This document shows, piece by piece, positions 1-57,197 of a stretch of DNA of 64,000 bases (position 1 is the first letter of the stretch; every line of letters begins with the position of its first letter). Under the pieces are notes generated by a model. The model was not told the DNA's origin. It was given only the letters and a program-made list of their open reading frames with translations, and made no database searches. The stretch lies in the NCBI GenBank assembly GCA_007128135.1, contig SKYA01000028.1, positions 1,136 to 65,135 on the forward strand, in the 5' to 3' direction. Both the position numbers and the translations under genes were made by a program. The stretch comes from Paracoccaceae bacterium. Its GTDB lineage: Bacteria > Pseudomonadota > Alphaproteobacteria > Rhodobacterales > Rhodobacteraceae.

Positions 1-1
1 G

Positions 2-24278: not shown

Positions 24279-24333
24279 GCTTTTGACTCGTCCAGTGTCG
24301 TGCGTGCCAAGTTCCCAAAGGGAGAGATTTGCG

Positions 24334-42220: not shown

Positions 42221-43759
42221 TCAGCCCGGGCGTGTTTCCTCATGCAGCATCGAGAGCCCTAGCTGCGCGCGTCGCCGCAGCCAAGGGTCGGGCCGGTAGC
42301 GCGGGTCACCGGTGGCGCGCATCATCCCCTCCAGAATCGACATCACCCGTGCAGGTCCGATTGCATCGGCCCAGGCCAGCGGGCCTTGCGGATAGTTCAG
42401 CCCCAACCTTACAGCACGGTCAATGTCGGCAGGTGTCGCCACCCGGTGCGTGGCGACCTGTGCGGCGATGTTGATGATCGTGGCAAGGATGCGCTGCGCC
42501 ACAAAGCCCGGACTATCGCCCAACACGCTCGCAGGTGTGCCATCGGCGGCCAGCATGGCCTGGGTGGTGGTCAGGATTTCCGGTCGCGTGGCAGGCGTGC
42601 CCATCAGGCTGCGTCGCCCCCTGAAGGCGAAAAGCGGATCGACCGCGACCACGCGCGCTGCATCCAGACCGCGACTGACGGCCACGGCACTGGCATCCAC
42701 GCCCAGAGGGGTGACCAGCAGGATCGAATCCGCTTGCGGGCTCGCGCCCTGATCCAGTGTCCCGCCAGCTTCGGTCACGACCTGCGCCAGCGCCGCAGCG
42801 GCCTCGGGGAGGGCCGGGTCGATCCAGAACCTGCCGCCCGTGTATGCCGGGACAGCGGCTTCCTCCGGCACGACTTGCCTGCCATTTTCGTAGCGGTAAT
42901 GTCCTTCGCCCGTCTTGCGTCCAAGGAGCCCCGCCTGCATTCGCTGGCCCATCATGACCGAGGGACGGTAGCGCGGTTCGTGATAGCTTTCGCCATAGAT
43001 GGCGAGCGAGGCCGGATGCGTGACATCAAGGGCCGTCAGGTCGATCAACTCGAACGGTCCCATGCGAAAGCCCGCCGCCTCGCGCATGATCCGGTCCACG
43101 GTGAAGAAATCGGCCACGCCCTCGCTGACCAGATGCGCGGCTTCCAACGTATAGCCGCGCCCGACCTGATTGACCAGAAACCCCGGTGCGTCGGCGACGC
43201 GCACGGGGCTGCGCCCCATGCGCCGTCCCAGCGCCATGAGCGCCTCGATCACCTCCGGGTCCGTGCGCACCCCGGCAATTACCTCGACCAGCGGCATCAG
43301 CGGCACCGGGTTGAAGAAGTGAAACCCTGCAATGCGCTCAGGGCGCGCGCAGTGGCCCGCAATCCGCGTGATCGAGAGCGAGGAGGTGTTCGATGTCAGG
43401 ATGCATTCGGGCGTGACCAGCGCCTCCAGCTCGGCAAATAGCGCGGCCTTGACATCGATATCCTCAACGATCGCTTCGACCACCACATCGGATGGCGCGA
43501 GCGCTGCAAGCCCGTCCGCGGGTGTAATGCGTGTCATTGCCGCCTCGGCTTCGGATCCGGTCATGCGACCCTTCTCGACAGCGCGAGACAGCATCCCGAC
43601 GACGAAATCGTGCGCCTCGCGCGCGGCGCCAGGGCGGGTGTCATGGATCAGCACCTGAACCCCGCCCATGGCCGCCACCTGCGCGATCCCGCGCCCCATG
43701 GCGCCTGCACCGACTATCCCAAGTGTCAGGTCGGGTGCATCGGCGGGTTTTCGGGCCAT
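42221..43759 (-). CDS. 3-hydroxyacyl-CoA dehydrogenase with duplicated C-terminal domain (PaaH-type architecture)
   Basis: GIVGAGAMGRGIA Rossmann motif and HFFNPVPLMPLVEV. A second C-terminal 3HCDH_C-like segment (LNYPQGPLAWADAIG), as in PaaH-type enzymes. Confidence 0.85.
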   Translation of the reverse strand: MARKPADAPDLTLGIVGAGAMGRGIAQVAAMGGVQVLIHDTRPGAAREAHDFVVGMLSRAVEKGRMTGSEAEAAMTRITPADGLAALAPSDVVVEAIVEDIDVKAALFAELEALVTPECILTSNTSSLSITRIAGHCARPERIAGFHFFNPVPLMPLVEVIAGVRTDPEVIEALMALGRRMGRSPVRVADAPGFLVNQVGRGYTLEAAHLVSEGVADFFTVDRIMREAAGFRMGPFELIDLTALDVTHPASLAIYGESYHEPRYRPSVMMGQRMQAGLLGRKTGEGHYRYENGRQVVPEEAAVPAYTGGRFWIDPALPEAAAALAQVVTEAGGTLDQGASPQADSILLVTPLGVDASAVAVSRGLDAARVVAVDPLFAFRGRRSLMGTPATRPEILTTTQAMLAADGTPASVLGDSPGFVAQRILATIINIAAQVATHRVATPADIDRAVRLGLNYPQGPLAWADAIGPARVMSILEGMMRATGDPRYRPDPWLRRRAQLGLSMLHEETRPG

Positions 43760-43762
43760 GGC

Positions 43763-44536
43763 TTATTCTCCCCTGAATCGTGCCGGGCGCTTTTCGAGGA
43801 ATGCGGCCATGCCCTCGGCCTTGTCGGTAGTGTCGAACAATGTCTCGAAGGCGCGGCGTTCCAGCATGATGCCTGTGTCAAGCGGCGCATCGGCCCCGGC
43901 CAGCACCACTTCCTTGATCTTGCGGGCCGCCAGCGGTGGCAGCGAGGCGATCCGCGCGGCGAGTTCCAGCGCGTGGGGCAGTACCTCGGCGTCCTCCACC
44001 ACTTCCGAGACGAGCCCCATCTCGAAGGCGACCCGCCCCGTGACCGGCTGCCCGGTCAGCAGCATCTGCATGGCCTTGAACTTGCCCACGGCCCGCACCA
44101 GCCGCTGCGTGCCCCCGCCGCCAGGCATGATGCCGACCCCGATCTCGGGCTGGCCCAGCCTGGCGCCCTCGCCTGCGATGATGATGTCGGCATGCATGGC
44201 CAGTTCCAGCCCGCCCCCCAGCGCAAAGCCGCGGATTGCCGCGATGACCGGCAGCGGGCAGGCGGCGATAACGCCCCAGGTCTGGCGCATGTCCACACGC
44301 GCGACATCCGTCGTGGACATGGTGGCAAATTCGCGCAGGTCGGCACCGGCAACAAAGGCGCGCTCGTCGCCGGTCATGACGATTGCGCGCAACTCAGGTT
44401 CCTGCACCGCCTGCATGAATGCCGCGGCCAGCGCCTTTCGCAGCGGTGTGTTGAGCGCGTTGCGCGCCTCGGGGCGGTTGATGCGCAAGAGGCGCACACC
44501 GGGCGCCGGGTCTTCCTGAAGGATCAGATCGGTCAT
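43763..44536 (-). CDS. Enoyl-CoA hydratase/isomerase (crotonase family, PaaF-like)
   Basis: 257 aa with crotonase motifs (FVAGADL, AAIRGFALGGGLELAMHADI). Lies 3 nt upstream of the dehydrogenase gene. Confidence 0.85.
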   Translation of the reverse strand: MTDLILQEDPAPGVRLLRINRPEARNALNTPLRKALAAAFMQAVQEPELRAIVMTGDERAFVAGADLREFATMSTTDVARVDMRQTWGVIAACPLPVIAAIRGFALGGGLELAMHADIIIAGEGARLGQPEIGVGIMPGGGGTQRLVRAVGKFKAMQMLLTGQPVTGRVAFEMGLVSEVVEDAEVLPHALELAARIASLPPLAARKIKEVVLAGADAPLDTGIMLERRAFETLFDTTDKAEGMAAFLEKRPARFRGE

Positions 44537-44659
44537 TGCTTCCCCGGTTAAAGGTCGATCACGTCGTGAACTGGGCTGATCTTATGGCAATATCATCTCA
44601 CTATGGACAGACCCGTGCGCGTTTTTTTTCTCACGAATGCCCGAACACCGGCCTTGCGC

Positions 44660-45946
44660 TCAGGGTTTTTGAAACCGTCCGGGCGCAAAAGGCGCCAGCG
44701 GAAGGTTGACATGCTGGCCCGCGATCATCTGCGCCAGAACCTGCCCGGTGCGCGCTCCACCTGTCAGTCCGATATGGTGGTGGCCAAAACCAAGCCACGC
44801 CCCGGAAAGGCCAGGAACCTCTCCGATCAGCGGCAGTGAGTCCGCGGGCACCGGGCGGTGCCCCATCCACTCGGTTTCCCTCTGCCAGCGCAATTCGGGA
44901 AAGGTGCGGGCAATGTGATGGCGCAGAAGTCGCAGCGGTGCGGTCGAGGGGCCTGCATCAAGCCCCCCATATTCGACGATGCCTGCAAGCCGCAATCGTC
45001 CCTCCATCGGAGTCACGACAAACTTGCCAGCGGCGACCATCATGGGCGCGCGCAAGGAATGCGAAGGCTCCCACAGGTCGATGTGATAGCCCCGTTCGCT
45101 TTCCAGCGGCACGCGCAGCCCGAGCCGCGAGGCCATCGGACCGGACCAGGCGCCGGTCGCCAGTACGACAGCATCGCACCCGAGCGTTTCCTCATGCCCG
45201 TCGCCGGTGGCAAGCCGGACGCCCGTGACATGCCCGCCCGCGCGGGCGATGTCGCGCAACTCGGCCTTGAGAAACTTGCCGCCCTGTGCGACGACATGCG
45301 CGGCAAGACGCTCGACATAGCTGCCCGGATCATTGATCCGCCCATGGTCTTGCAGCCGAGCGATGAAATTCACGCCGGGGCCGATGGCCGGGTCGCAGTC
45401 GCGCGCCCTGGCGCCCTCTGCCTCGTCCCAGCGAAACCCGAGCGCGCGCCGCAATTCCCAGCCAAAGGAATCGGCCGCGTAATCCTGTCGGCTTCGATAG
45501 AGATAGATATACTCCGACGGCACCACGAGCGCCTCTGCCCCGGTTTGCGCCGCGAGCGCCTGATGATCGGCCAGGGAGTTGCCGACAAGCCCGGCAAGCG
45601 CGGTGGCGATGCGGCGCGTATCCGCCGCATTGGCGTGGCTCAGATAGCGTATCATCCATGGCGCGAGCCGCGGCAGGTAGGACCAACGCAGGAAGAGCGG
45701 CGCGCGCGGGTCCAGTAGCATTCGTGGTGCCCTGGCCAGCAGCCCCGGCACCGTGACCGGCACCACTGCGCATGAGGCCAGCACGCCACCATTGCCGAAA
45801 CTCGCGCCCGCCGCCGGCCCCTCGCGATCAATCAGGGTGACGCGCTGGCCCAGTCGCTGAAGCCAGACTGCCGTGGCGACCCCGACCATTCCGGCCCCGA
45901 TCACCGCGACATGCCTGCCTGACCTTCCTGAGTCTGCATCTGCCAT
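44660..45946 (-). CDS. FAD-dependent oxidoreductase (DAO / D-amino-acid dehydrogenase-like)
   Basis: HVAVIGAGMVGVATAVWLQRLG dinucleotide-binding motif, ~428 aa, DadA-like. ATG at 45946. Confidence 0.8.
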   Translation of the reverse strand: MADADSGRSGRHVAVIGAGMVGVATAVWLQRLGQRVTLIDREGPAAGASFGNGGVLASCAVVPVTVPGLLARAPRMLLDPRAPLFLRWSYLPRLAPWMIRYLSHANAADTRRIATALAGLVGNSLADHQALAAQTGAEALVVPSEYIYLYRSRQDYAADSFGWELRRALGFRWDEAEGARARDCDPAIGPGVNFIARLQDHGRINDPGSYVERLAAHVVAQGGKFLKAELRDIARAGGHVTGVRLATGDGHEETLGCDAVVLATGAWSGPMASRLGLRVPLESERGYHIDLWEPSHSLRAPMMVAAGKFVVTPMEGRLRLAGIVEYGGLDAGPSTAPLRLLRHHIARTFPELRWQRETEWMGHRPVPADSLPLIGEVPGLSGAWLGFGHHHIGLTGGARTGQVLAQMIAGQHVNLPLAPFAPGRFQKP

Positions 45947-46057
45947 GTCCACGCTCCTGCCATGCGATCGCCTGCATGGTCTAGGGCCACCGACGGGTCC
46001 GCGCAAGCGCAGAGCCGCGCTGGCCTGTCGTCGGCAGCAGCGCACGGTGCATGGCGC

Positions 46058-46915
46058 TCAGTACCAGAGCCGGAATTGTTCACGCGTGATCTTCAGAAGC
46101 CGCGCCTGAAGCCGTGCGCTGCGCAGGCGCAGCGGCATGGCCGCATGGGCGGGTTGCGACAGGATCGGCGCATCCGCGATCAGTCTCGCCTGACCGCTCT
46201 CGTCCAGTGCACGCGCCGTCTGTTCGAAGACATAGCCACTGGCGCCAAGTTTCAGGATCATGTCCGCCGCCGCATCCGCGCGCCCGACCGTCATCGGGGC
46301 GCCTACGAATTGCGGCAACTGCCTGCGATGCGCGGCCTCGAAGGCAGGGGCGTAATTCCCGAAGACATAGCGGTGCACATCCACGTCCGAAAGCCGCAGG
46401 GCATGGGTCGAGATCATGCGATAGCGAATATCGCCCAGTCCCGTGAAATGCAGGTCCGGATGCGGGCGGGGAGTGAACAGCACCGCGAAATCCAGCGTGC
46501 CCGAGATCAGGTCGCTGCACATCTGGTTGGAGTAATCGAGCTCGAAATATATGGCCATGCCGGGAAAGGTCGCCTGAAACCTAGCCGCCCAATCTGCCAG
46601 ATGGCTGGTCGCCAGATCATGCTGAAGACCCAGTCGCAGCACCAGCGCGCGCTCGCCCCGATGCTCTACCGAGCGTTTCGCAGCCGTCCATTCCGCGCGC
46701 AACGCGCGGGCATGCGGTTCGAATCTCAGCCCCTGGGTGGTCAGGTCCGTACCTGCGCGCGAGCGACTGAACAGCGCGGTTCCGAGGGCCCGCTCCAGGG
46801 CCTTGAGCCGGGCCGAGACAGTCGATTGCGTGACACCCAGCCGGTCTGCCGTGCGGTGGAAGCTGCGCGTCTCGCACAGGTCCAGGAAAGTGGTGATCTG
46901 GTCGATCTGCATCAT
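46058..46915 (-). CDS. LysR-family transcriptional regulator
   Basis: N-terminal wHTH (ITTFLDLCETRSFHRTADRLGVTQSTVSARLKALE) plus an LTTR substrate-binding domain. Divergent from the 47028 operon. Confidence 0.9.
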   Translation of the reverse strand: MMQIDQITTFLDLCETRSFHRTADRLGVTQSTVSARLKALERALGTALFSRSRAGTDLTTQGLRFEPHARALRAEWTAAKRSVEHRGERALVLRLGLQHDLATSHLADWAARFQATFPGMAIYFELDYSNQMCSDLISGTLDFAVLFTPRPHPDLHFTGLGDIRYRMISTHALRLSDVDVHRYVFGNYAPAFEAAHRRQLPQFVGAPMTVGRADAAADMILKLGASGYVFEQTARALDESGQARLIADAPILSQPAHAAMPLRLRSARLQARLLKITREQFRLWY

Positions 46916-46931
46916 GGACAGACTGCGCCTT

Positions 46932-46950
46932 CTGATCGTAAAAGCCGATC
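46932..46950. promoter_or_regulatory. LTTR-box candidate (TGATCG-N7-CGATCA, containing ATC-N9-GAT)
   Basis: Perfect 6-bp inverted repeat in the 112-nt lysR / operon intergenic region. It fits the T-N11-A / ATC-N9-GAT LysR-type motif. Confidence 0.45.
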
Positions 46951-47027
46951 AATAACCGCTGGTTTGTCGAATTGAAAGCGGGACGGGCTATTGCAATACT
47001 GCCGTCATCGGGCAAGGGGCAGGGCTG

Positions 47028-49469
47028 ATGGCAGAGTTTCCGACACAGGCGCGGGTCGTGATCATCGGAGGAGGTGTGGTCGGAGCGTCCTGCCTGTATC
47101 ATCTGGCCCGCGCAGGCTGGCGCGACTGTCTGCTGCTCGAGCGCAATGAACTGACGGCGGGGTCGACATGGCATGCCGCGGGCAATGTGCCCACCTTCTC
47201 TTCCTCATGGTCGATCATGAACATGCAGCGGTATTCCGCGGAACTCTATCGCGGGCTGGGCGCGGCGGTGGATTACCCAATGAACTATCATGTCACCGGA
47301 TCGGTACGGCTGGGGCATACGGTGGAGCGGCTGCGAGAATTCGAGCGCGTCAAGGGCATGGGGCGCTATCAGGGCATGGACCTCGAGGTGCTCGCCCCTG
47401 ACGATATCCGCAGCCGATATCCGTTTGTCGAGACGCATGACCTTTCTGGGGCGCTGTATGACCCGTATGATGGCGATATAGACCCCGCGCAGCTGACCCA
47501 GGCTCTGGCCAAGGGTGCCCGCGATGCCGGCGCGCGGATCGAGCGGTTTTGCCCGGTGACAGCGGCGCGCTGGACCGGGAGCGAGTGGGCTCTCAAGACT
47601 CCGAAGGGCGAGATACGTTGCGAATATGTGGTCAATTCGGCAGGCTATTACGCGGCGCGCGTGGGCGCGATGTTCGGCCGCCGCGTGCCGATGATGGTGA
47701 TGAGCCATCAATACCTGTTGTTCGACACAATCCCCGAGCTTGAGGCGTGGACCCGTGAGGTGGGCCACAAACTGCCGCTGTTGCGCGATGTGGACAGCAG
47801 CTACTATCTGCGGCAGGAAAAATCCGGCTTCAACCTGGGCCCGTATGAGAACCCCGGTCGCGCACACTGGGTCTCGCCGGATGATCCCATGCCCGAGGAT
47901 TTCAGCTTCCAGCTTTATCCGGACGATCTGGAGCGGATCGAATGGCAGATGACGGATGCCATGGCGCGCGTGCCGCTGCTGGAAAAGGCGGCCCTGCAAA
48001 AGGTCATCAACGGTCCCATTCCCTACACGCCCGACGGCAACCCGCTGATCGGCCCAATGCCCGGCGTGCCCAATGCCTATGAGGCCTGTGTCTTTACTTT
48101 CGGCATATGTCAGGGCGGCGGCGCGGGCAAGGTGCTTGCCGAATGGGTCATGGAGGGCGCGACCGAATGGGACATGTGGTCCTGCGACCCGCGCCGTTTC
48201 ACCGGGTTCGAGGATCACGACTATTGCGTGGCCAAGGGGATGGAGGTGTATGGCCATGAATATGCCATCCATTTCCCGCATCACGCGTGGCCCGCCGGGC
48301 GCGGCAAGAAACTCTCACCGGTTCACGCCGAGGTGGCGGCGCTGGAGGCGCAGTTCGGCGCCTTCAACGGCTGGGAGCGTGCGCTATGGTTTGCCCGCCC
48401 GGGCGATGACACTTCAGAGCAAGCGCAAAAGACATGGGATCGCGAGGGGCCGTGGTTCGCGGCCGTCAAGGCCGAATGCGAGGCAGTGCGCGATGCCTGC
48501 GGCATTCTCGACCTGCCGGGGTTCTCGCGGTTCCGGCTGAAAGGGGCCGGGGCGGACGACTGGCTTGCACGACAGATTACCGGACGCGTGCCCGGGGTCG
48601 GGCGCGTTGGGCTGGGCTATTTCGCCGACGACAAGGGGCGGATCGTCACGGAAATGTCGCTGGCGCGAATGGCGCCGGACGAAGTGCTGCTGATCACGGC
48701 GGCAACGGCGCAGGGCCATGACGGCGACTGGCTGAGCCGTCATCTGGAGCCTGGCCTGACACTGGTGGATGAAACCGACGACTGGTCCTGCCAGATCCTG
48801 ACCGGTCCGCGTGCGCGTGATATCCTTGCACAGGTGTGTATCGGCGATCTGCTGCGTCCCTGGCTGACGCATCAGGCAGTGCAGATTGACGAGCGCGCGT
48901 GCCATCTGATGCGCGTTTCCTTTGCCGGAGAACTGGGCTGGGAGGTGCATGCCCGCGCTGCCGACATGCCCGCCATCCGCGCAGCGGTGATGGAGGCAGG
49001 CAAGCCGCATGGGCTGAAACCCTTCGGCATGTACGCGCTCAATTCGCTTCGGATCGAGAAAGCCTATCGCGCGTGGAAGGGCGATCTTTCGACCGATTAC
49101 ACGATGCTGCAAGGCGGGTTTGAGAGATTCATCGATTGGGACAAACCCAAATTCCGGGGTAAAGCGGCGCTCTCGAGCGAGAAGGAGGCAGGGGTTGCCA
49201 AGCGGTTCACCGTGCTGAAGGTTGCGGCGGGCGAATGCGACCCGCCCTATATGTCCACCCTCTGGCATGATGGGGCAGTGGTGGGCGAGACGACCAGCGG
49301 CTATTGGGGCCATCGCGTCGGGGCCTGCCTTGCGCTGGGGATGCTGCGCGCCGATCTGGCGCAACCCGGTACGCAGATCGAGGTCGAGATATTCGGCAAG
49401 CGCTGCGCGGCCGAGGTGCTGGGCGATGGCCCGGTCTGGGACCCCGGCAACGAACGGCTGCGCGCATGA
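47028..49469 (+). CDS. DMGDH/sarcosine-dehydrogenase-like FAD oxidoreductase with GcvT domain (paralog 2)
   Basis: VVIIGGGVVGASCLYHLA, the STWHAAG motif, and the C-terminal FAGELGWEVH aminomethyltransferase-like domain. Confidence 0.85.
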   Translation: MAEFPTQARVVIIGGGVVGASCLYHLARAGWRDCLLLERNELTAGSTWHAAGNVPTFSSSWSIMNMQRYSAELYRGLGAAVDYPMNYHVTGSVRLGHTVERLREFERVKGMGRYQGMDLEVLAPDDIRSRYPFVETHDLSGALYDPYDGDIDPAQLTQALAKGARDAGARIERFCPVTAARWTGSEWALKTPKGEIRCEYVVNSAGYYAARVGAMFGRRVPMMVMSHQYLLFDTIPELEAWTREVGHKLPLLRDVDSSYYLRQEKSGFNLGPYENPGRAHWVSPDDPMPEDFSFQLYPDDLERIEWQMTDAMARVPLLEKAALQKVINGPIPYTPDGNPLIGPMPGVPNAYEACVFTFGICQGGGAGKVLAEWVMEGATEWDMWSCDPRRFTGFEDHDYCVAKGMEVYGHEYAIHFPHHAWPAGRGKKLSPVHAEVAALEAQFGAFNGWERALWFARPGDDTSEQAQKTWDREGPWFAAVKAECEAVRDACGILDLPGFSRFRLKGAGADDWLARQITGRVPGVGRVGLGYFADDKGRIVTEMSLARMAPDEVLLITAATAQGHDGDWLSRHLEPGLTLVDETDDWSCQILTGPRARDILAQVCIGDLLRPWLTHQAVQIDERACHLMRVSFAGELGWEVHARAADMPAIRAAVMEAGKPHGLKPFGMYALNSLRIEKAYRAWKGDLSTDYTMLQGGFERFIDWDKPKFRGKAALSSEKEAGVAKRFTVLKVAAGECDPPYMSTLWHDGAVVGETTSGYWGHRVGACLALGMLRADLAQPGTQIEVEIFGKRCAAEVLGDGPVWDPGNERLRA

Positions 49470-51907
49470 CAGCCATTCCCGACCGCGCGCAGGCGGTCAT
49501 CATCGGGGGCGGCGTTGCGGGCTGCTCGGTCGCCTATCATCTGTCGCTGATGGGCTGGCGCGATATCGTGCTGCTGGAGCGCAAGCGCCTGACCTCGGGC
49601 ACGACCTGGCATGCCGCCGGACTGATCGGCCAGTTGCGCGGCAATGCCAACATGACACGGCTCGCGAAATATTCGACCGATCTCTACACGCGATTGGAAG
49701 AAGAGACGGGCCTTGCCACCGGCTTTCGGCAGGTCGGCTCTATCTCGGCAGCGTTGACGCCAGAGCGGCATCACGAACTCCTGCGCGCTGCCACCACCGC
49801 GCGCGCCTTCGCTGTCGAGGTTCAGGAAGTCTCTCCCGGCGAGATCAGGGCGCTTTATCCGCATCTGAATACGGCGGATGTGGTGGGCGGCGTGCATCTG
49901 CCCGGTGACGGGCAGGCCGACCCGGCCAATATTGCGCTGGCACTGGCCAAGGGGGCGCGGATGCGCGGGGCGCGCGTGCTGGAAGGGGTCAAGGTCACGC
50001 AGGTCTCATTCAAGGACGGGCGGGTGCACGGGGTTGGATGGCAAAGCGGGCAGGAGCATGGCCAGATCGCCACGGACGTCGTGATCAACTGCGCGGGCAT
50101 GTGGGCGCGCGATCTGGCGGCAGAGGCAGGCGTCAGCCTGCCGCTTCATGCCTGCGAGCATTTCTATCTCGTCACCGAACCCATTGCCGGGCTGGGGCAT
50201 CTGCCGGTGCTGCGCGTGCCCGATGAATGCGCTTATTACAAATCCGACGCGGGCAAGATGATGCTGGGCGCGTTCGAGCCCAAGGCCAAGCCCTGGGGCA
50301 TGGCGGGAATCCGCGAGGATTTCGAGTTTGACACATTGCCCGAGGACTGGGACCATTTCATGCCCATTCTCGAGGCTGCCATGCACAGGATGCCGTTGTT
50401 GCAAAGCGCCGGGATTCACACTTTCTTCAACGGCCCCGAAAGCTTCACCCCCGACAACCGTTATTATCTGGGCGAGGCGCCGGAACCGGGCGGTTACTGG
50501 GTCGTGGCAGGGTTCAACTCGGTGGGCATCCAGTCGGCGGGTGGCGCGGGCATGGCGGTCGCGCACTGGATCACGCAGGGCGAGGCGCCCTTCGACCTCA
50601 ATGATGTGGATATACGCCGCGCCCAGCCCTTTCAGCGCAACCGTCGCTACCTGGCCGAGCGGGTCAGCGAGACGCTGGGACTGCTCTATGCCGATCACTT
50701 CCCCTACCGGCAGATGGAAACCGCGCGCGGCATCCGCCGCTCGCCGTTGCATGCGCATCTGCGCTCACGCGGTGCTGTCTTTGGCGAGGTGGCCGGATGG
50801 GAGCGCGCCAACTGGTTCGCGCAGGACGGGCAGGAGTCGCGCTATGCCTACTCGTGGTTCCGGCAGAACTGGTTTGACAGCCATCGCCGCGAGCATCTGG
50901 CCGTGCGAGAGGATGTGGGCCTGTTCGACATGTCTTCCTTCGGCAAGATCCGAATCGAGGGGAGAGATGCGGCCTCCTTTCTGCAACGCCTCTGCGCCAA
51001 TCAGGTGGATGTGCCGCCGGGGCGCATCGTCTATACGCAGATGCTCAACCCGCGCGGCGGCATCGAGGCGGATGTGACCGTCACCCGTTTGTCCGAAACA
51101 GCCTTTCTGATGGTGACGGCGGTGGCCAATCTGCAGCGCGATCTGGCCTGGATGCGCCGCCATCTCGCTGCGGATGAGTTCGTCACCATCACGGACACGA
51201 GCGCCGCCGAGGCGGTGCTGTGCCTGATGGGACCGCGTGCGCGCGAGGTGCTGGCGCGGATCACGCCTGCGCGGCTCGACAACGATGCCTTCCCGTTTGG
51301 CACCGCGCAGGAGATAGAGCTTGGCATGAGTCTTGGGCGCGCGCATCGCATCACCTATGTCGGCGAACTGGGCTGGGAGTTGTATGTCCCCACCGATCAG
51401 GCCGCGCATGTGTTCGAGGCACTGCTCGAGGCCACGCCGGAACTGGCACTGTGTGGCCTGCACGCGCTCGATTCCTGCCGGATCGAGAAAGGCTTTCGTC
51501 ATTTCGGCCATGATATTACTGATGAGGATCATGTTCTCGAGGCGGGCCTCGGTTTTGCGGTCAAGCCGGACAAGGGCGCGTTCATAGGGCGTGAGGCCGT
51601 GCTGCACAAGCGCGAGGCCGGACTGGAGCGAAGACTTGTGCAGTTCCGGTTGCGCGACCCCGAGCCGCTGCTGTTTCATAACGAGGCTATCTGCCGTGAC
51701 GGGCAGATCGTCGGAACCATTACCAGCGGAAATTACGGGCATCATCTGGGGGGCGCGGTCGGGCTTGGATATGTGCCCTGCAAGGGCGAGAGCGCGGAGG
51801 CCTTGCTGGCGTCGCATTACGCGATCGAGATCGCCGGCAAGCGCCATGAGGCCGAGGCAAGCCTTGCGCCGCTCCATGACCCGAAGGCCGAACGTGTGAA
51901 GCGCTAG
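49466..51907 (+). CDS. DMGDH/sarcosine-dehydrogenase-like FAD oxidoreductase with GcvT domain (paralog 3)
   Basis: AVIIGGGVAGCSVAYHLS, TTWHAAG and YVGELGWELY. ATGA overlap with the preceding paralog. The 867-aa ORF is an upstream extension. Confidence 0.85.
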   Translation: MTAIPDRAQAVIIGGGVAGCSVAYHLSLMGWRDIVLLERKRLTSGTTWHAAGLIGQLRGNANMTRLAKYSTDLYTRLEEETGLATGFRQVGSISAALTPERHHELLRAATTARAFAVEVQEVSPGEIRALYPHLNTADVVGGVHLPGDGQADPANIALALAKGARMRGARVLEGVKVTQVSFKDGRVHGVGWQSGQEHGQIATDVVINCAGMWARDLAAEAGVSLPLHACEHFYLVTEPIAGLGHLPVLRVPDECAYYKSDAGKMMLGAFEPKAKPWGMAGIREDFEFDTLPEDWDHFMPILEAAMHRMPLLQSAGIHTFFNGPESFTPDNRYYLGEAPEPGGYWVVAGFNSVGIQSAGGAGMAVAHWITQGEAPFDLNDVDIRRAQPFQRNRRYLAERVSETLGLLYADHFPYRQMETARGIRRSPLHAHLRSRGAVFGEVAGWERANWFAQDGQESRYAYSWFRQNWFDSHRREHLAVREDVGLFDMSSFGKIRIEGRDAASFLQRLCANQVDVPPGRIVYTQMLNPRGGIEADVTVTRLSETAFLMVTAVANLQRDLAWMRRHLAADEFVTITDTSAAEAVLCLMGPRAREVLARITPARLDNDAFPFGTAQEIELGMSLGRAHRITYVGELGWELYVPTDQAAHVFEALLEATPELALCGLHALDSCRIEKGFRHFGHDITDEDHVLEAGLGFAVKPDKGAFIGREAVLHKREAGLERRLVQFRLRDPEPLLFHNEAICRDGQIVGTITSGNYGHHLGGAVGLGYVPCKGESAEALLASHYAIEIAGKRHEAEASLAPLHDPKAERVKR

Positions 51908-51914
51908 CCAGACA

Positions 51915-53498
51915 TTGACACCCGAACAGAAGGGGCACCCCATGAGCCAGATCGTTTCAGAACCCGCCCCTGCGCGCAACAAGGCGCGACGGGGGCGCGC
52001 AAGCCGCATGGCCGAACGCGCCGCCCCCCTGGCCGAGGCCTTGCGGCCGGTGCGTGCAGGACTGCCGGGGGGGCAATACCGCCCGCTGAGCGATGCGGGC
52101 GTGCAGCAGATCCATGCGGCTGCGCTGGATGCGCTGGAAGAGATCGGGCTCGCACAGGCTCCTGCCTCGGGCGTCGATATCCTGACCGGCGCGGGCGCGA
52201 TGCAGGGCGCGGATGGGCGTATCCGCTTTCCGCGCGCGCTGGTCGAGGACATGCTGGCTGTCGCCGCGCGCGACATCACCCTTTACGCCCGCGACCCGTC
52301 CCATGACCTGCACCTGTCCGGCAGCAAGGTGCATTTCGGCACCGCAGGCGCAGCGGTGCATGTGGTCGATCCGGTCACGGGCGATTATCGCGACTCGACC
52401 GCGCAGGATCTCTATGATGCCGCACGGATCACGCAAGGGCTCGAAAATGTGCATTTCTTTCAGCGCACCATGGTCTGTCGTGATGTTCCCGACAATTTCG
52501 ACATGGATATCAATACACTCTATGCCTGCCTCTCTGGCACACGCAAGCATGTCGGAACCTCGTTTTCCGACCCCGCCCATGTGGCGGGTTGTTTCGATCT
52601 GCTTCACATGGTGGCAGGGTCGGAACACGTCTGGCGCAACCGTCCCTTCGTCAGCAACTCCAACTGCTTCGTCGTCCCGCCGATGAAATTTGCCGAGGAA
52701 AGCTGCATGGTCATGGAGGATTGCGTGCGCCGGGGCATGCCGGTGCTCCTGCTGTCGGCCGGGCAGGCCGGGGCCACGGCACCCGCGCCGATTGCGCTCG
52801 CCATCGTGCAGGCAGTGGCGGAATGCCTTGCGGGGGTGGTCTATGTCAACGCCATCACGCCGGGGCATCCCGCGATCTTCGGAACCTGGCCTTTCGTATC
52901 TGACCTGCGAACCGGCGCCATGTCGGGCGGCAGTGCAGAGCAAGCCCTCCTGACCGCAGGCTGCGCGCAGATGCACCGTTTCTACAACCTGCCGGGCGGG
53001 GCTGCGGCGGGTATCTCCGACAGCAAGCTGCCTGACATGCAGGCGGGATGGGAACAGGCCATCACCAACACGCTGGCAGGGCTCTCGGGGCTGAACATGG
53101 TCTATGAATCGGTGGGGATGCATGCCTCGCTTCTGGGCTTCTGTCTGGAGAGCCTTGTCATGGGGGATGACATCCTCGGTCAGGTGCTGCGCTGTGTGCG
53201 CGGCATCGATGTGACACCGGACTCGACGTCGCTGGATGTGATGCGCGAGGTCTGCCTGGGCGGTCCGGGGCATTATCTGGGGTCGGACCAGACCTTGCGG
53301 CTGATGCAGACCGAATATGTCTATCCCAGTGTCGGCAACCGGATGAGTCCCAAGGAATGGGTAGAGGCAGGCTCGCCGCGGCTGCTGGACCGCGCCATTG
53401 CGCGCAAGAACGCGCTTCTGGCGACTATGGGCAGCACCATCGACCCCGACATCGACGCCGCCATCCGCGCGCGGTTCAATATCTGTTTTCGCAACTGA
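51915..53498 (+). CDS. MttB-superfamily (trimethylamine methyltransferase-like) protein, non-pyrrolysine type
   Basis: ~520-aa uninterrupted ORF with no internal TAG. Overall resemblance to MttB/MtgB-type TIM-barrel methyltransferases (LSD..V..IH.AAL..LE..G, long C-terminal barrel). The start may be ATG 51942. Confidence 0.8.
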   Translation: MTPEQKGHPMSQIVSEPAPARNKARRGRASRMAERAAPLAEALRPVRAGLPGGQYRPLSDAGVQQIHAAALDALEEIGLAQAPASGVDILTGAGAMQGADGRIRFPRALVEDMLAVAARDITLYARDPSHDLHLSGSKVHFGTAGAAVHVVDPVTGDYRDSTAQDLYDAARITQGLENVHFFQRTMVCRDVPDNFDMDINTLYACLSGTRKHVGTSFSDPAHVAGCFDLLHMVAGSEHVWRNRPFVSNSNCFVVPPMKFAEESCMVMEDCVRRGMPVLLLSAGQAGATAPAPIALAIVQAVAECLAGVVYVNAITPGHPAIFGTWPFVSDLRTGAMSGGSAEQALLTAGCAQMHRFYNLPGGAAAGISDSKLPDMQAGWEQAITNTLAGLSGLNMVYESVGMHASLLGFCLESLVMGDDILGQVLRCVRGIDVTPDSTSLDVMREVCLGGPGHYLGSDQTLRLMQTEYVYPSVGNRMSPKEWVEAGSPRLLDRAIARKNALLATMGSTIDPDIDAAIRARFNICFRN

Positions 53499-53507
53499 GG
53501 GGCTGGC

Positions 53508-54947
53508 ATGATTTCCGACAATCTGGGGCAATTTCTGATCGGCGGGGCGTGGGTGACGCCTGACCCGGCGGCCCGGCGCTTCGGCGTGGAGAACCCTGCA
53601 ACCGAGTCCATCATGGCCAAGATCCCCCTTGGCACCGAAGCCGATGCCGCGCGTGCGATTGCAGCGGCGCGCGATACTTTCGAGGAATGGACGGGCACGC
53701 CTGTCAGCGACCGGCTGGACCTGCTGGCCCGGGTGCTGACGCTTTACCGCGCGCGTCGAGCAGAACTGGCTGATGCAATGCGGCTGGAGATGGGTGCGCC
53801 TTCCGCATGGGCGCTCGAGGCGCAGGCATGGGCGGGCGAGGTGCATCTGGAGGCGACGCTGGAGGCGGGCAAACGCTTTCACTGGGAAGAACAGCGCGGC
53901 ACGACCCGACTGATCCGCGAGGGGATCGGGGTCTGCGGACTGATTACGCCCTGGAACTGGCCATTGAACCAGATCGTCTGCAAGGTCGCTCCGGCGCTGG
54001 TCGCGGGCTGCACGATGGTGCTCAAGCCGTCGGAGCTTGCACCCCTGTCGGCAGTGCTCTTCGCCGAAATCCTGCAGGAGGCAGGCTGCCCGCCGGGTGT
54101 GTTCAATCTCGTGCAGGGCACCGGACCGGAGGTCGGGCAGGTGCTGGCGTCGCACCCGGAGGTGGACATGGTCAGCTTCACAGGCTCGACCCGCGCAGGA
54201 GTGTCGGTGGCACAGGCCGCCGCGCCCACTGTCAAGCGGGTCGCACAGGAACTCGGTGGGAAATCCCCGAATATCCTGCTTCCGGAGTGTGACTTCCCGG
54301 CAGCCGTGGCGGCAGGGGTAACGGCCTGCATGGACAATGCAGGCCAGTCCTGCGACGCGCCGACGCGCATGTTCGTGCCCGCCGCGCGCATGGCCGAGGC
54401 GATGGAAATTGCGCGCGACACTGCCAGCGCGATACGCCCGGGCGACCCGGTTGACCCGAAGACGACCATGGGGCCGCTGATCAGCCGCGCGCAGTGGGAC
54501 AAGGTGCAGGGGATGATCGCGCAGGGCATGGCCGAGGGCGCCGAACTTGTCTGCGGCGGTCCGGGGCGGCCAGAAGGGCTGAATCGGGGCCACTTCGCGC
54601 GACCGACCGTGTTTGGACATGTCACCCCGCAGATGACCATCGCGCGCGAGGAGATTTTCGGCCCGGTCCTGTCGATCCTTGCTTATGACACTGTCGATGC
54701 GGCGGTCGCGATGGCCAATGACACGGTTTACGGTCTAGCCGCCTATGTGCAGGGCCCCGAGGCACAGGCGCGCTTGGTCGCAAGACGGCTGCGGGCGGGG
54801 CAGGTCCAGATCAATGGTCCGGATTGGAACGTGCACGCGCCTTTCGGGGGCTACAGGCAATCGGGCAACGGGCGCGAATATGCCGACTGGGGCATCCATG
54901 ATTTCTGCGAGGTCAAGGCACTTGTGGGATATGGGGCAGAACAATGA
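53508..54947 (+). CDS. NAD(P)-dependent aldehyde dehydrogenase
   Basis: ELGGKSP motif, catalytic Cys context NAGQSCDAPTR, EEIFGPV, ~479 aa. Confidence 0.9.
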   Translation: MISDNLGQFLIGGAWVTPDPAARRFGVENPATESIMAKIPLGTEADAARAIAAARDTFEEWTGTPVSDRLDLLARVLTLYRARRAELADAMRLEMGAPSAWALEAQAWAGEVHLEATLEAGKRFHWEEQRGTTRLIREGIGVCGLITPWNWPLNQIVCKVAPALVAGCTMVLKPSELAPLSAVLFAEILQEAGCPPGVFNLVQGTGPEVGQVLASHPEVDMVSFTGSTRAGVSVAQAAAPTVKRVAQELGGKSPNILLPECDFPAAVAAGVTACMDNAGQSCDAPTRMFVPAARMAEAMEIARDTASAIRPGDPVDPKTTMGPLISRAQWDKVQGMIAQGMAEGAELVCGGPGRPEGLNRGHFARPTVFGHVTPQMTIAREEIFGPVLSILAYDTVDAAVAMANDTVYGLAAYVQGPEAQARLVARRLRAGQVQINGPDWNVHAPFGGYRQSGNGREYADWGIHDFCEVKALVGYGAEQ

Positions 54948-55849
54948 GCACGCATTACGGCTATATCGGGCTGGGCAATCTGGGCGGTCATGTTGCCGCG
55001 TCGCTGCTCAGGGCCGGGTTTCGCGTCACTGTCCACGATCTGAACGCCGCCCTTGCGGCGCGGCTTCTTGAGCAAGGCGCTACATGGGCTGACAGTCCCG
55101 AGGCGCTTGCAGCCAGTGTCGACCATGTCATGACCTGCCTGCCGTCGCCTGCCGTCAGCCGGGCGGTTCTCGAACGCATCCTGCCCCATATGCGCCCGCA
55201 GGCCTGCTGGATAGAGAATTCCACTCTGGGGCGCGATGATATCCTTGCGCTTGCCGAGCTTGCCGCACGCCACCAGGTAGCGACACTGGAGGCCCCTGTC
55301 ACAGGCGGCGTCCATCTGGCGAAGCGCGGCGAGATCACCGTTCTGGCCGGGGGCGCGCAGGAGCTCTATGCGGCGCATCTGCCCGCGCTGCAGGCCATCG
55401 GCAACCGGCAATTCCACATGGGCCCGCTGGGCTCGGCCGCGATCATCAAGGTGATCACCAACATGTTGGCCTTCATCCATCTGAAAGCCTGCTCCGAGGC
55501 GTTGATGCTGGCAAGGCGCGGCGGGCTCGATCTTGCGCAGGCATGGCACGCAATCGCGGCGTCGTCCGGCACTTCGTTCGTGCATGAGACCGAAGGCGCG
55601 CTGATTCTGAACGGCAGCTATGACATCGCCTTTTCCATCGACCTGGCGTTGAAGGATCTGGGCTTTGCACTCGCTTTCGGACGTGAATTCGAGGTGCCTC
55701 TGGAGCTTGCCTCGGCGACCGAGCAGACCTATGTTGCTGCACGAGCCGCCTATGGCGGAAAGGCGCAATCGCCGATGATCGCAAAGCTGCTCGAGGACCT
55801 TCTCGGAACCGATCTGCGCGCAGAAGGTTTTCCTGAAAAGCTCGAATAG
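54944..55849 (+). CDS. Beta-hydroxyacid dehydrogenase family oxidoreductase (3-hydroxyisobutyrate / tartronate semialdehyde reductase-like)
   Basis: GYIGLGNLGGHVAASLLRAGF Rossmann motif and 6PGDH_NADP-binding-like layout. ATGA overlap with the ALDH gene. Confidence 0.85.
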   Translation: MSTHYGYIGLGNLGGHVAASLLRAGFRVTVHDLNAALAARLLEQGATWADSPEALAASVDHVMTCLPSPAVSRAVLERILPHMRPQACWIENSTLGRDDILALAELAARHQVATLEAPVTGGVHLAKRGEITVLAGGAQELYAAHLPALQAIGNRQFHMGPLGSAAIIKVITNMLAFIHLKACSEALMLARRGGLDLAQAWHAIAASSGTSFVHETEGALILNGSYDIAFSIDLALKDLGFALAFGREFEVPLELASATEQTYVAARAAYGGKAQSPMIAKLLEDLLGTDLRAEGFPEKLE

Positions 55850-55985
55850 GCGCTGCGCGCGGGCAGGAATCCCGGCTTTGTCAAGCCATGGTGCCAGCGG
55901 TGGCCCTATGCTTGCGAAACGGTACGCAGGGAATGATGTCTGACCGTTCAGGGCTGCGAGTGCCTGTCGGGGAAGCGGAACAGTC

Positions 55986-57197
55986 GTGAGCCACGAGGCA
56001 GACAGCAAGACGGCATATCCGGGCAGCGCGGGTGAGGTTTTCAGGGCCTTCCTGAAACTGGGCCTGACCAGTTTTGGCGGACCGATCGCGCATCTGGGCT
56101 ATTTCCGGGACGAGTTGGTGATAAGGCGCAAATGGCTGGATGACCGGGCCTATGCCGATCTGGTTGCCCTTTGCCAGTTTCTGCCGGGGCCTGCCTCGTC
56201 TCAGGTCGGCTTTGCGTTGGGCATGGCGCGCGCGGGCTGGCCGGGCGCGCTGGCGGCCTTTATGGCGTTCACTCTGCCGTCAGCGCTGATCCTGCTGGTC
56301 TTTGCGATGACTGCGGCCAGCATCACGGGGCCGGTGGGGACAGGCGCCATGAACGGGCTGAAGATCGTCGCCGTTGCCATTATTGCCCAGGCAGTCTGGG
56401 GAATGACGAAGTCACTCTGCCCCGACAGGGAACGCGGCGCCATCGCTGTGGCCGCTGTGGTCGTACTGGCTTTCGTACCCGGGGTGTCTGGCATGATCGG
56501 CGCGATTGTACTCGGGGCGGCATCAGGTCTGATGCTGGGGCGTGGAACCGGCATACCGGTTGGAGGCCATGTCGCCCTTCCAGTGACGCGCCGGGGTGCG
56601 CTCGGCGCGCTGGTCTCCTTTTTCGCGCTGCTGGTGCTGTTGCCGCTGCTGTCGGGGCAGGCGCAGGCATTCGCCGTCATCGACAGTTTCTACCGGGCGG
56701 GCGCGCTGGTATTCGGTGGCGGGCACGTGGTGCTGCCGCTGTTGCAGGCCGAGACCGTGGCAACAGGCTGGGTGGGTAGGGACGAGTTTCTAGCGGGTTA
56801 CGGAGCGGCGCAGGCGGTGCCGGGGCCGCTTTTCACCTTTGCCGCCTATCTGGGGGCCGTGCTGGGACCAGAGCCGAACGGACTCGTCGGCGCGACCCTG
56901 GCGCTGTTGGCCGTTTTCCTGCCAGGGTTCTTGCTGTTGGTTGGTGTGCTGCCTTTCTGGGATAGCTTTCGGAGAGCGCCGCGCGCGCAGTCGCTGATGC
57001 AGGGGGCGAATGCGGCGGTCGTCGGGATACTGGGTGCAGCCCTCTATTCCCCGATCTTTACTGGCGCGATCAGTGACATCCGCGATTTCGCTCTGGCGCT
57101 TGCATGTTTCGTGCTTCTGATGGCGTGGAAGGCACCGCCCTGGATCGTGGTGATCGTGGCGGCTCTGGGTGGTGTCGCGCTGGCACTGTCGGGCTGA
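55986..57197 (+). CDS. chrA: Chromate ion transporter (CHR family)
   Basis: FLKLGLTSFGGPIAHLGYFRDELV and the duplicated second half (ALVFGGGHVVLPLL), typical of long-chain ChrA. GTG start. Confidence 0.85.
   Translation: MSHEADSKTAYPGSAGEVFRAFLKLGLTSFGGPIAHLGYFRDELVIRRKWLDDRAYADLVALCQFLPGPASSQVGFALGMARAGWPGALAAFMAFTLPSALILLVFAMTAASITGPVGTGAMNGLKIVAVAIIAQAVWGMTKSLCPDRERGAIAVAAVVVLAFVPGVSGMIGAIVLGAASGLMLGRGTGIPVGGHVALPVTRRGALGALVSFFALLVLLPLLSGQAQAFAVIDSFYRAGALVFGGGHVVLPLLQAETVATGWVGRDEFLAGYGAAQAVPGPLFTFAAYLGAVLGPEPNGLVGATLALLAVFLPGFLLLVGVLPFWDSFRRAPRAQSLMQGANAAVVGILGAALYSPIFTGAISDIRDFALALACFVLLMAWKAPPWIVVIVAALGGVALALSG

Follow-up and report, generated by a model that had tools for sequence, protein, structure and literature searches.

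The 64,000-nucleotide stretch of DNA analysed here (hereafter the window), from a Paracoccaceae bacterium, contains an operon that I consider, with a probability of about 65%, to be a LysR-controlled system for the stepwise N-demethylation of a methylated ammonium compound, in which an MttB-family methyltransferase acts via a shared corrinoid protein, MtgC, and the favoured substrate is one other than glycine betaine. The stepwise logic, with later methyl groups removed by two enzymes resembling dimethylglycine dehydrogenase (DMGDH), had been proposed in an earlier, sequence-only reading of this DNA, and is supported by the present analysis. Knowing the substrate would reveal a further route by which aquatic bacteria turn over methylated nitrogen, and one more demand for cobalamin. 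For that purpose, this operon has the richest genetic setting, with a regulator, two demethylases for the later steps and two carbon-skeleton enzymes.

Organization and regulation of the operon

A domain search returned the expected Pfam domains for all six genes, five of them on the same strand with a divergent LysR gene opposite. The features are as follows:

46058–46915, minus strand: LysR-family regulator (HTH_1 and LysR_substrate domains)
46933–46951, unstranded: predicted LysR-type box, inverted repeat TGATCG-N7-CGATCA, which includes ATC-N9-GAT and T-N11-A
46972–47000, plus strand: putative promoter-like site (TTGAAA, 17 nt, AATACT)
47028–49469, plus strand: DMGDH-like FAD/tetrahydrofolate N-demethylase A, 813 aa (DAO, FAO_M, GCV_T, GCV_T_C)
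49466–51907, plus strand: DMGDH-like FAD/tetrahydrofolate N-demethylase B, 813 aa (DAO, FAO_M, GCV_T, GCV_T_C), ATGA overlap with A
51942–53498, plus strand: non-pyrrolysine MttB-superfamily methyltransferase, MtgB2 clade, 518 aa (PF06253, 370.7 bits)
53508–54947, plus strand: aldehyde dehydrogenase (ALDH), nearest to the betaine-aldehyde/aminoaldehyde type, 479 aa (Aldedh, 486.7 bits)
54944–55849, plus strand: beta-hydroxyacid dehydrogenase (beta-HAD) family protein, 301 aa (NAD_binding_2 and NAD_binding_11), ATGA overlap with the ALDH gene

The LysR gene is found in the equivalent position at the Gemmobacter, Pseudorhodobacter and G215 loci; the protein reached no equivalog cut-off in the NCBIfam profile search. 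In an alignment of the intergenic region, the arms of the inverted repeat are kept across four genera, as are both hexamers of the promoter-like site, which is the sole sigma-70-like match within positions 46000–56200 and may act as the promoter. The ATC-N9-GAT box of the sequence-only reading is thus confirmed as part of a longer repeat, kept together with a -35/-10 pair, and the protein domains and intergenic T-N11-A motif are, as far as sequence can tell, those of a LysR-type regulator with a divergent target promoter.

The two ATGA overlaps (49466–49469 and 54944–54947) and the 9 nt that separate the MttB and ALDH genes can be read directly in the sequence, as had been reported. However, the 7-nt gap described before the MttB gene presumes a TTG start at 51915. 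The most likely start is the ATG at 51942, which leaves a gap of 34 nt, has a Shine-Dalgarno motif (GAAGGGG) immediately upstream, and yields the 518-aa product recorded for the same sequence in the protein collection (P0001). Because of this start, and since the gaps at orthologous loci span 63–70 nt, the DMGDH-B/MttB junction is, judging by these positions, not translationally coupled. The proposal of a single LysR-controlled operon is supported. The cluster is kept in Gemmobacter and Pseudorhodobacter, and its DMGDH-A/DMGDH-B/MttB core is found across many alphaproteobacterial families; the contexts of three distant representatives (P0123, P0125 and P0126, 42–47% identity) were heterogeneous and uninformative. 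The host of the operon described here is a freshwater bacterium.

Both DMGDH-like proteins possess the domain architecture of the dimethylglycine/sarcosine dehydrogenase family (DAO, FAO_M, GCV_T and GCV_T_C), and share this four-domain FAD and folate arrangement over their full length with mammalian DMGDH (PDB 4PAA, 5L46) and Arthrobacter dimethylglycine oxidase (PDB 1PJ5), but they are only 32% identical to each other. Protein B matches DMGDH with 468 bits and the Arthrobacter oxidase with 377. Similarity to solved structures was considered as a means of picking the true DMGDH and rejected, as A and two paralogs outside the operon score 539–559 bits and B 468, values that do not indicate which of them acts on dimethylglycine. 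By neighbour annotations, neither A nor B matched the glycine-betaine-induced R. pomeroyi proteins SPO0544, SPO0635 and SPO1628. In roughly half of 38 loci, members of the MttB clade have an orthologue of A as neighbour.

The methyltransferase clade and its probable corrinoid partner

The window MttB matches PF06253 over residues 16–510 (370.7 bits; family cut-off 25), which places it in the MttB superfamily. Its reading frame of 518 codons has no internal stop, and the position of Pyl334 (shown as X) in the Methanosarcina barkeri trimethylamine methyltransferase MttB (PDB 7XCL) is taken by an ordinary residue, Ile358, in agreement with the earlier assignment to the non-pyrrolysine branch. The M. 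barkeri enzyme belongs to the same superfamily (163 bits), but differs in its pyrrolysine, its amber codon and in not sharing the aerobic host. Desulfitobacterium hafniense MtgB (PDB 2QNE, 9YCE) is likewise non-pyrrolysine and of the same TIM-barrel MttB fold family, with a full-length match of 198 bits, but comes from an anaerobe with dedicated, adjacent MtgC and MtgA.

A phylogeny against characterised members had been suggested. The tree obtained, in which MtpB, MtcB, MtyB, SPO2108 and SPO2134 were left out and naming relies on PDB matches and synteny, resolves the clade of the window MttB as a monophyletic branch of its own (support 0.97), roseobacter members included. The window protein is 64–67% identical to these roseobacter members. 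In Ruegeria sp. THAF57, the gene order (IPMS-like, CysS, OMP, MttB, B12-dependent RNR) fits the annotations of SPO2130, 2131, 2133, 2134 and 2136, and by this synteny the window MttB is assigned as the orthologue of MtgB2 (SPO2134) from Ruegeria pomeroyi. It is distinct from MtgB1 (SPO2108; PGA1_RS07270 in P. inhibens; S. meliloti homologue PDB 4YYC), the glycine betaine:cobalamin methyltransferase that has genetic support in aerobes. MtgB1 belongs to the same superfamily and presumably uses the same corrinoid partner, but shows only 26–29% identity to the window protein. The genome has a separate MtgB1 orthologue, which lies on a different contig and scores 752 bits to 4YYC. The MtgB2-type clade was found in 46 of 401 sampled alphaproteobacterial species genomes (∼11%), streamlined marine-type genomes included, and in each case an MtgB1-like paralog accompanies it.

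The absence of a corrinoid partner, as initially described, holds for the window and its whole contig, where no B12-binding domain was found, but not for the genome. The outcome that the sequence-only reading had named as contrary to it, namely a corrinoid protein and MT2 encoded elsewhere and co-regulated, is, as far as the encoding goes, what a genome search returned. The following genes lie on other contigs:

C112, 20524–21225: MtgC, 233 aa (B12-binding_2 and B12-binding)
C112, adjoining MtgC: MtgE, an S-methyl_trans protein
C87, 925–1977: MtgD-like protein, 350 aa (Pterin_bind and CdhD)
C67, 16443–18488: RamA-type reductive activase, 681 aa (RACo domains)
C140, 4265–5083: DUF1638 protein (DUF1638 domain)

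The genome therefore holds the components of an MtgBCD(E) system, with a standalone corrinoid protein, MtgD, a RamA-type activase and DUF1638, and the DxHxxG motif of MtgC (D113, H115, G118) is invariant in 19 orthologues. In aerobic Alphaproteobacteria, a single corrinoid protein, MtgC, is common to the split methionine synthase and the MttB-type demethylases (PMC12478193). Genetic work has shown that aerobic roseobacters use this shared MtgC and the pterin-binding MtgD, encoded apart from the mtgB genes (Mausz et al. 2025, PMC12478193), and R. pomeroyi needs both mtgC and mtgD to demethylate glycine betaine (PMC12478193). Together with the full MtgC/E/D, RamA and DUF1638 set found here, this published mechanism answers the headline puzzle of the earlier reading, of how an MttB homologue could work without a corrinoid acceptor. 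The closest known system is R. pomeroyi DSS-3 MtgB2, which is of the same clade and also has no adjoining corrinoid gene. However, the roseobacter gene is an orphan for which the evidence is proteomic only, while here it lies in an operon with two DMGDH-like genes, ALDH, beta-HAD and LysR.

The predicted methyl transfer from the window MttB to MtgC is in keeping with genome co-occurrence; a complex prediction from the two alignments scored 0.04, but was run without controls and counts neither for nor against binding. In the proposed pathway, the MtgB2-type MttB would take one methyl group from the substrate and load it onto shared MtgC in the Co(I) state, from which MtgD would pass it to tetrahydrofolate, or MtgE to homocysteine, with RamA and DUF1638 re-reducing any oxidised cobalamin. 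As expected from their family, DMGDH-like A and B would then oxidise the remaining N-methyls, yielding 5,10-methylene-tetrahydrofolate. ALDH and beta-HAD may act on the carbon skeleton, at an alcohol or aldehyde group, before or after demethylation.

Substrate of the MtgB2-type enzyme

Residues R312 and H348 are essential in MtgB, where an H348E variant is almost dead (PMC13080624). The four betaine-binding residues of D. hafniense MtgB are all replaced in the window MttB (Y97G, R312G, H348E and F356L); the counterparts are G136, G353, E389 and L397, identified at ∼30% identity in HMMER and MAFFT alignments that agree. The window MttB consequently lacks the residues expected of a glycine betaine methyltransferase (Y97, R312, H348, F356). 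The G-G-E-L pattern is identical in 36 of the 42 clade members, and the three other MttB paralogs of the genome retain Arg and His at the betaine-binding positions. By this comparison, the substrate pocket of the MtgB2 clade is rebuilt, and because the betaine-binding residues are replaced, the substrate is probably not glycine betaine. The clade also has invariant arginines of its own (R175, R180, R234, R417 and R467), and these could contact a carboxylate from a different direction. Glycine betaine appears less favoured than some other compound, possibly one without a carboxylate at the MtgB site. The earlier idea of a substrate other than glycine betaine is viable, and the active-site comparison strengthens it.

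Glycine betaine is nevertheless a serious rival. The operon could encode a plain corrinoid-dependent glycine betaine pathway, with MttB as a second glycine betaine:corrinoid methyltransferase, A as dimethylglycine dehydrogenase and B as sarcosine dehydrogenase, yielding glycine. The triad exactly matches the needs of this conversion, which requires no skeleton enzyme, and A matches the rat and human dimethylglycine dehydrogenases with 554 bits. R. pomeroyi MtgB2 rises by log2 2.5–4.1 on carnitine, choline and glycine betaine, and has been named a candidate glycine betaine methyltransferase (PMC12478193). Orthologues of B are widespread (91 of 401 sampled genomes), including 49 of 355 genomes that do not possess the MttB clade, a distribution that suits enzymes acting on a common metabolite. 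I nonetheless regard this pathway as unlikely. All four betaine-contacting residues are lost, the essential R312 included, with glutamate in place of H348, and the genome's own MtgB1 orthologue retains Y97, R312 and H348, alongside a further DMGDH-like gene beside another MttB paralog and a sarcosine-oxidase-like gene. In P. inhibens, loss of mtgB1 and gbcAB abolishes growth on glycine betaine, so the paralogs mtgB2-4, termed uncharacterised, do not stand in for mtgB1 (bioRxiv 10.64898/2025.12.19.695462). Streamlined genomes retain both MttB types: all 12 small genomes with the clade (some of 1.4–1.7 Mb) also hold a high-scoring MtgB1-like paralog, which argues for different functions. Furthermore, transporters adjoining the clade in other genomes are of PotD or Dpp type rather than betaine type, and a glycine betaine pathway leaves ALDH and beta-HAD without a role.

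Two other explanations bear on the chemistry rather than on the substrate. A corrinoid-free MttB, passing the methyl straight to tetrahydrofolate or another acceptor, would suit an operon and window that hold no corrinoid gene and neighbours that are tetrahydrofolate-dependent. To my knowledge, however, all characterised MttB-family enzymes methylate a corrinoid. MtgC orthologues are present in 42 of the 46 sampled genomes with the clade, against 37 of the 355 genomes that do not carry it; the four exceptions are incomplete (64–91%), and a standalone B12-binding protein of ∼235–300 aa is found in 10 of 10 small genomes tested. The related R. pomeroyi reaction also genetically needs mtgC (PMC12478193), and I consider direct transfer highly improbable. 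More improbable still is that the window MttB is a paralog which has no catalytic function or is decaying, and simply travels with the operon, as its low Pfam score (370 bits, against 710–789 for the other paralogs) and its missing substrate-binding residues might suggest. The clade shows 80–93% identity between genera and 50–77% between families, with 133 invariant columns among 22 aligned sequences, it is kept even in the 1.4–1.7 Mb genomes, and the R. pomeroyi protein is detected and induced (PMC12478193).

Returning to the favoured demethylation of a compound other than glycine betaine, a more specific version can be put forward tentatively, at less than even odds. The MtgB2 clade would be the aerobes' cobalamin-dependent methyltransferase for a methylammonium compound other than a classical carboxylate betaine at the MtgB site, with the invariant Glu389 replacing the carboxylate-binding His, and the Paracoccaceae ALDH and beta-HAD tying in the carbon skeleton. 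Candidates would be amino alcohols of the choline or N,N-dimethylethanolamine type, a tertiary amine in its protonated state, or a hydroxy-betaine, for example homoserine betaine or the DGTA head group. Literature searches on the breakdown of homoserine betaine, and on MttB in combination with DMGDH, found nothing specific.

Proposed skeleton enzymes

The best NCBIfam match of the ALDH is BADH, at 396 bits, well under the 668.6 cut-off, so that it is not identified as BetB. A choline-to-betaine module formed by ALDH and beta-HAD was considered, and rejected as necessary, as a canonical betB-betA pair is already present on C77; no bet cluster was found beside the closest ALDH paralog (C115). 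The beta-HAD can be placed at family level only, as it scores below the equivalog cut-offs for HIBADH (153.7 vs 291.6) and L-threonate dehydrogenase (172.5 vs 350), and below that of the tartronate semialdehyde reductase model. The two genes are an add-on of some lineages only: the ALDH is co-located with the MttB clade in Paracoccaceae and G381, and beta-HAD homologues adjoin it in G087 and G381.

Operon layout and control region

Open reading frame listing and Pfam scans bear out a minus-strand LysR gene opposite five plus-strand genes, in a window whose G+C content lies at 60–67%:

46058–46915 (−), LysR regulator gene
47028–49469 (+), DMGDH-like A, 813 aa (DAO, FAO_M, GCV_T, GCV_T_C)
49466–51907 (+), DMGDH-like B, 813 aa (DAO, FAO_M, GCV_T, GCV_T_C)
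start most likely ATG 51942 (+), MttB-family protein (PF06253)
53508–54947 (+), aldehyde dehydrogenase (ALDH)
54944–55849 (+), beta-hydroxyacid dehydrogenase family protein (beta-HAD)

Inspection of the sequence confirmed both ATGA overlaps and the 9-nt gap described in the sequence-only reading. In contrast, the 7-nt gap it placed at the MttB junction holds only with TTG 51915 as the start. ATG 51942 is better placed: GAAGGGG stands just 5' of it, the resulting 518-aa product equals the protein-collection entry, and the same junction has gaps of 63–70 nt in the orthologous loci of Gemmobacter fulvus and Pseudorhodobacter ferrugineus. The divergent intergenic region between the LysR gene and DMGDH-like A (112 nt) contains an inverted repeat, TGATCG-N7-CGATCA (46933–46951), and −35 (TTGAAA) and −10 (AATACT) hexamers, all of which are kept in Gemmobacter, Pseudorhodobacter and a fourth genus in an intergenic alignment. 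The count of terminator-like sites within the operon does not exceed the shuffle expectation.

On the 3' side, a chromate transporter (ChrA) gene follows after 136 nt (55986–57197, +), a position where relatives instead carry an SDR gene, transcribed from the other strand. On the other flank (42221–46045, −), a gene for a 461-aa D-amino-acid-dehydrogenase-like flavoprotein lies on the same strand, 12 nt after the LysR gene, and next come genes for an enoyl-CoA hydratase and a 3-hydroxyacyl-CoA dehydrogenase of 512 aa; these genes are outside the cluster in Gemmobacter and Pseudorhodobacter.

Identity and binding site of the MttB-family protein

The genome encodes four PF06253 proteins, and the window MttB shares only 26–29% identity with the other three. 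Its scores are 198 bits against D. hafniense MtgB and 163 bits against Pyl-MttB; the paralogs reach 300–404 bits against MtgB and 365–752 bits against 4YYC, the S. meliloti structure. Glycine betaine is bound in MtgB by Y97, R312, H348 and F356, and the R312L variant is inactive and H348E nearly so (Picking et al., 2026; PMC13080624). The aligned residues of the window MttB are G136, G353, E389 and L397, and its Ile358 aligns with Pyl334 of MttB. Arg-His is present in all three other paralogs, with Y, R and H all retained in the one on contig C141. The window protein belongs to a clade of 42 tips (hereafter the window clade) that is monophyletic in a 124-sequence alignment (support 0.97). At the betaine positions the clade shows a G-G-E-L signature in 36/42 and G-S/V-E-L or G-G-E-I in the remainder; it also has invariant Arg and aromatic residues of its own. 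Judged from these alignments, the substrate pocket of the clade is rebuilt, and its substrate may bear a carboxylate.

Two paralog loci were inspected. At C6:34005–38733 (L025), an MttB gene (Y-R-H-L) has a divergent LysR gene on one side and, on the other, the gene of an N-methylproline demethylase (StcD)-type flavoprotein with Oxidored_FMN/Pyr_redox_2 domains, and the locus looks like a proline-betaine-type module. At C141:37612–44503 (L024), a further MttB paralog (S-R-H-G) is accompanied by an XRE-type regulator, with a fourth DMGDH-like gene nearby.

The clade locus of a Ruegeria sp. has the order LeuA-like, CysS, aminotransferase, small outer-membrane protein, MttB and B12-dependent ribonucleotide reductase. 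This matches the R. pomeroyi proteome table, where SPO2130 is of the isopropylmalate/homocitrate synthase family, SPO2131 is CysS, SPO2133 an outer membrane protein, SPO2134 MtgB2 and SPO2136 a B12-dependent reductase (PMC12478193); by synteny, the window MttB is therefore the ortholog of MtgB2 (SPO2134). The ortholog of the C141 paralog adjoins guaA in a roseobacter-type genome, as MtgB1 (SPO2108) adjoins SPO2109 guaA in R. pomeroyi. Glycine betaine does not support growth of a P. inhibens mtgB1 gbcAB double mutant, and the same study terms mtgB2-4 related uncharacterised methyltransferases (bioRxiv 10.64898/2025.12.19.695462); a clade member is present in a Phaeobacter sp. genome.

Probable corrinoid partner

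The sequence-only reading had the operon lacking a corrinoid partner. This stands for the window's contig, where a domain search found no B12-binding domain, but not for the genome: the genome-wide search it proposed, once run, found a 233-aa protein with B12-binding cap and B12-binding domains on contig C112, adjoining a homocysteine S-methyltransferase-domain protein in a split methionine synthase arrangement. Other contigs encode a 350-aa Pterin_bind/CdhD protein (C87), a 681-aa RACo/RamA-type activase (C67), a DUF1638 protein (C140) and a partial classical MetH (C106). Directly upstream of the activase gene, a 138-aa ORF (C67:18575–18991, −) gives a weak, below-cut-off B12-binding match (20.5 bits).

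[quoted passage not shown] The genes of the pfam06253 proteins MtgB1 and MtgB2 lie elsewhere in that genome, away from MtgC/MtgD, and RamA and DUF1638 are co-induced (PMC12478193). Among 401 alphaproteobacterial species genomes, the window clade occurs in 46 and MtgC orthologs (at least 69% identity) in 79. MtgC is present in 42/46 clade-positive versus 37/355 clade-negative genomes, an association that spans many families and that a Fisher p-value overstates, since related genomes are not independent. The four clade-positive genomes without MtgC are 64–91% complete, and a standalone B12-binding protein (∼235–300 aa) was found in 10/10 small genomes tested. Family membership, genome inventory, this co-occurrence and the published genetics on the sister paralog together give good support to a corrinoid-dependent mechanism via shared MtgC; a corrinoid-free mechanism is very improbable.

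Conservation of the cluster and its substrate

The nearest MttB relatives (80–93% identity) are from Gemmobacter, Tabrizicola, Pararhodobacter, Pseudorhodobacter and Rhodobacter, which places the genome in the Paracoccaceae (Rhodobacterales). The LysR gene and five-gene cluster are complete in G. fulvus and P. ferrugineus, with different flanks. DMGDH-like A/B orthologs are recurrent neighbours of the clade, at about half of 38 fetched loci. Within the same set, ALDH and beta-HAD homologs are linked to it only in Paracoccaceae and one further genome (G381), while the locus of another (G087) has beta-HAD without ALDH. Regulators are of the LysR or XRE-cupin type, and the ABC transporter genes seen at a few loci are PotD-type or Dpp-type, not betaine-type. 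In roseobacter-type genomes the clade MttB gene is an orphan, and the DMGDH-like orthologs are still paired, at a separate locus beside transporters of the LysE and EamA families. Of the 401 genomes, 91 have a DMGDH-like B ortholog, 49 of these without a window-clade MttB.

I consider a corrinoid-dependent demethylation operon whose substrate is not glycine betaine, or not glycine betaine alone, to be the best reading (probability about 0.65). Plain glycine betaine catabolism would fit the DMGDH-like neighbours and the induction of MtgB2, whose log2 rise is 3.6 on carnitine, 2.5 on choline, 3.9 on glycine betaine and 4.1 on succinate plus glycine betaine (PMC12478193). It is nevertheless unlikely, as the betaine-binding residues are replaced in the window MttB, the MtgB1 type is co-retained, and ALDH and beta-HAD are extra. 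At least one MtgB1-like paralog is kept in 12/12 smaller clade-positive genomes, including genomes of 1.4–1.7 Mb, which argues against redundancy between the two types. The canonical betB-betA pair lies on contig C77, and the operon ALDH is thus not needed for choline oxidation.

At two loci, L071 (genome G369) and L073 (G073), an Arg-His-type MttB and a G-G-E-L-type MttB share one cluster with a DAO flavoprotein and the pair of DMGDH-like orthologs, so that both methyltransferase types flank the same demethylase pair.

Further flavoenzyme-related genes were identified in the window. An ORF at 1–2269 (+), running past the window start (C68:330–3404), encodes ∼1000 residues whose C-terminal part resembles the DMGDH-like GcvT domain (27–29% identity), probably a sarcosine oxidase alpha subunit; a Pfam scan of the ORF next to it gave no match. 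A third full-length DMGDH-like gene (24283–26859, +; 858-aa ORF, 539 bits to rat DMGDH, 37% identity to DMGDH-like A) stands alone between flgI (flagellar P-ring) and a peptidase M3 gene.
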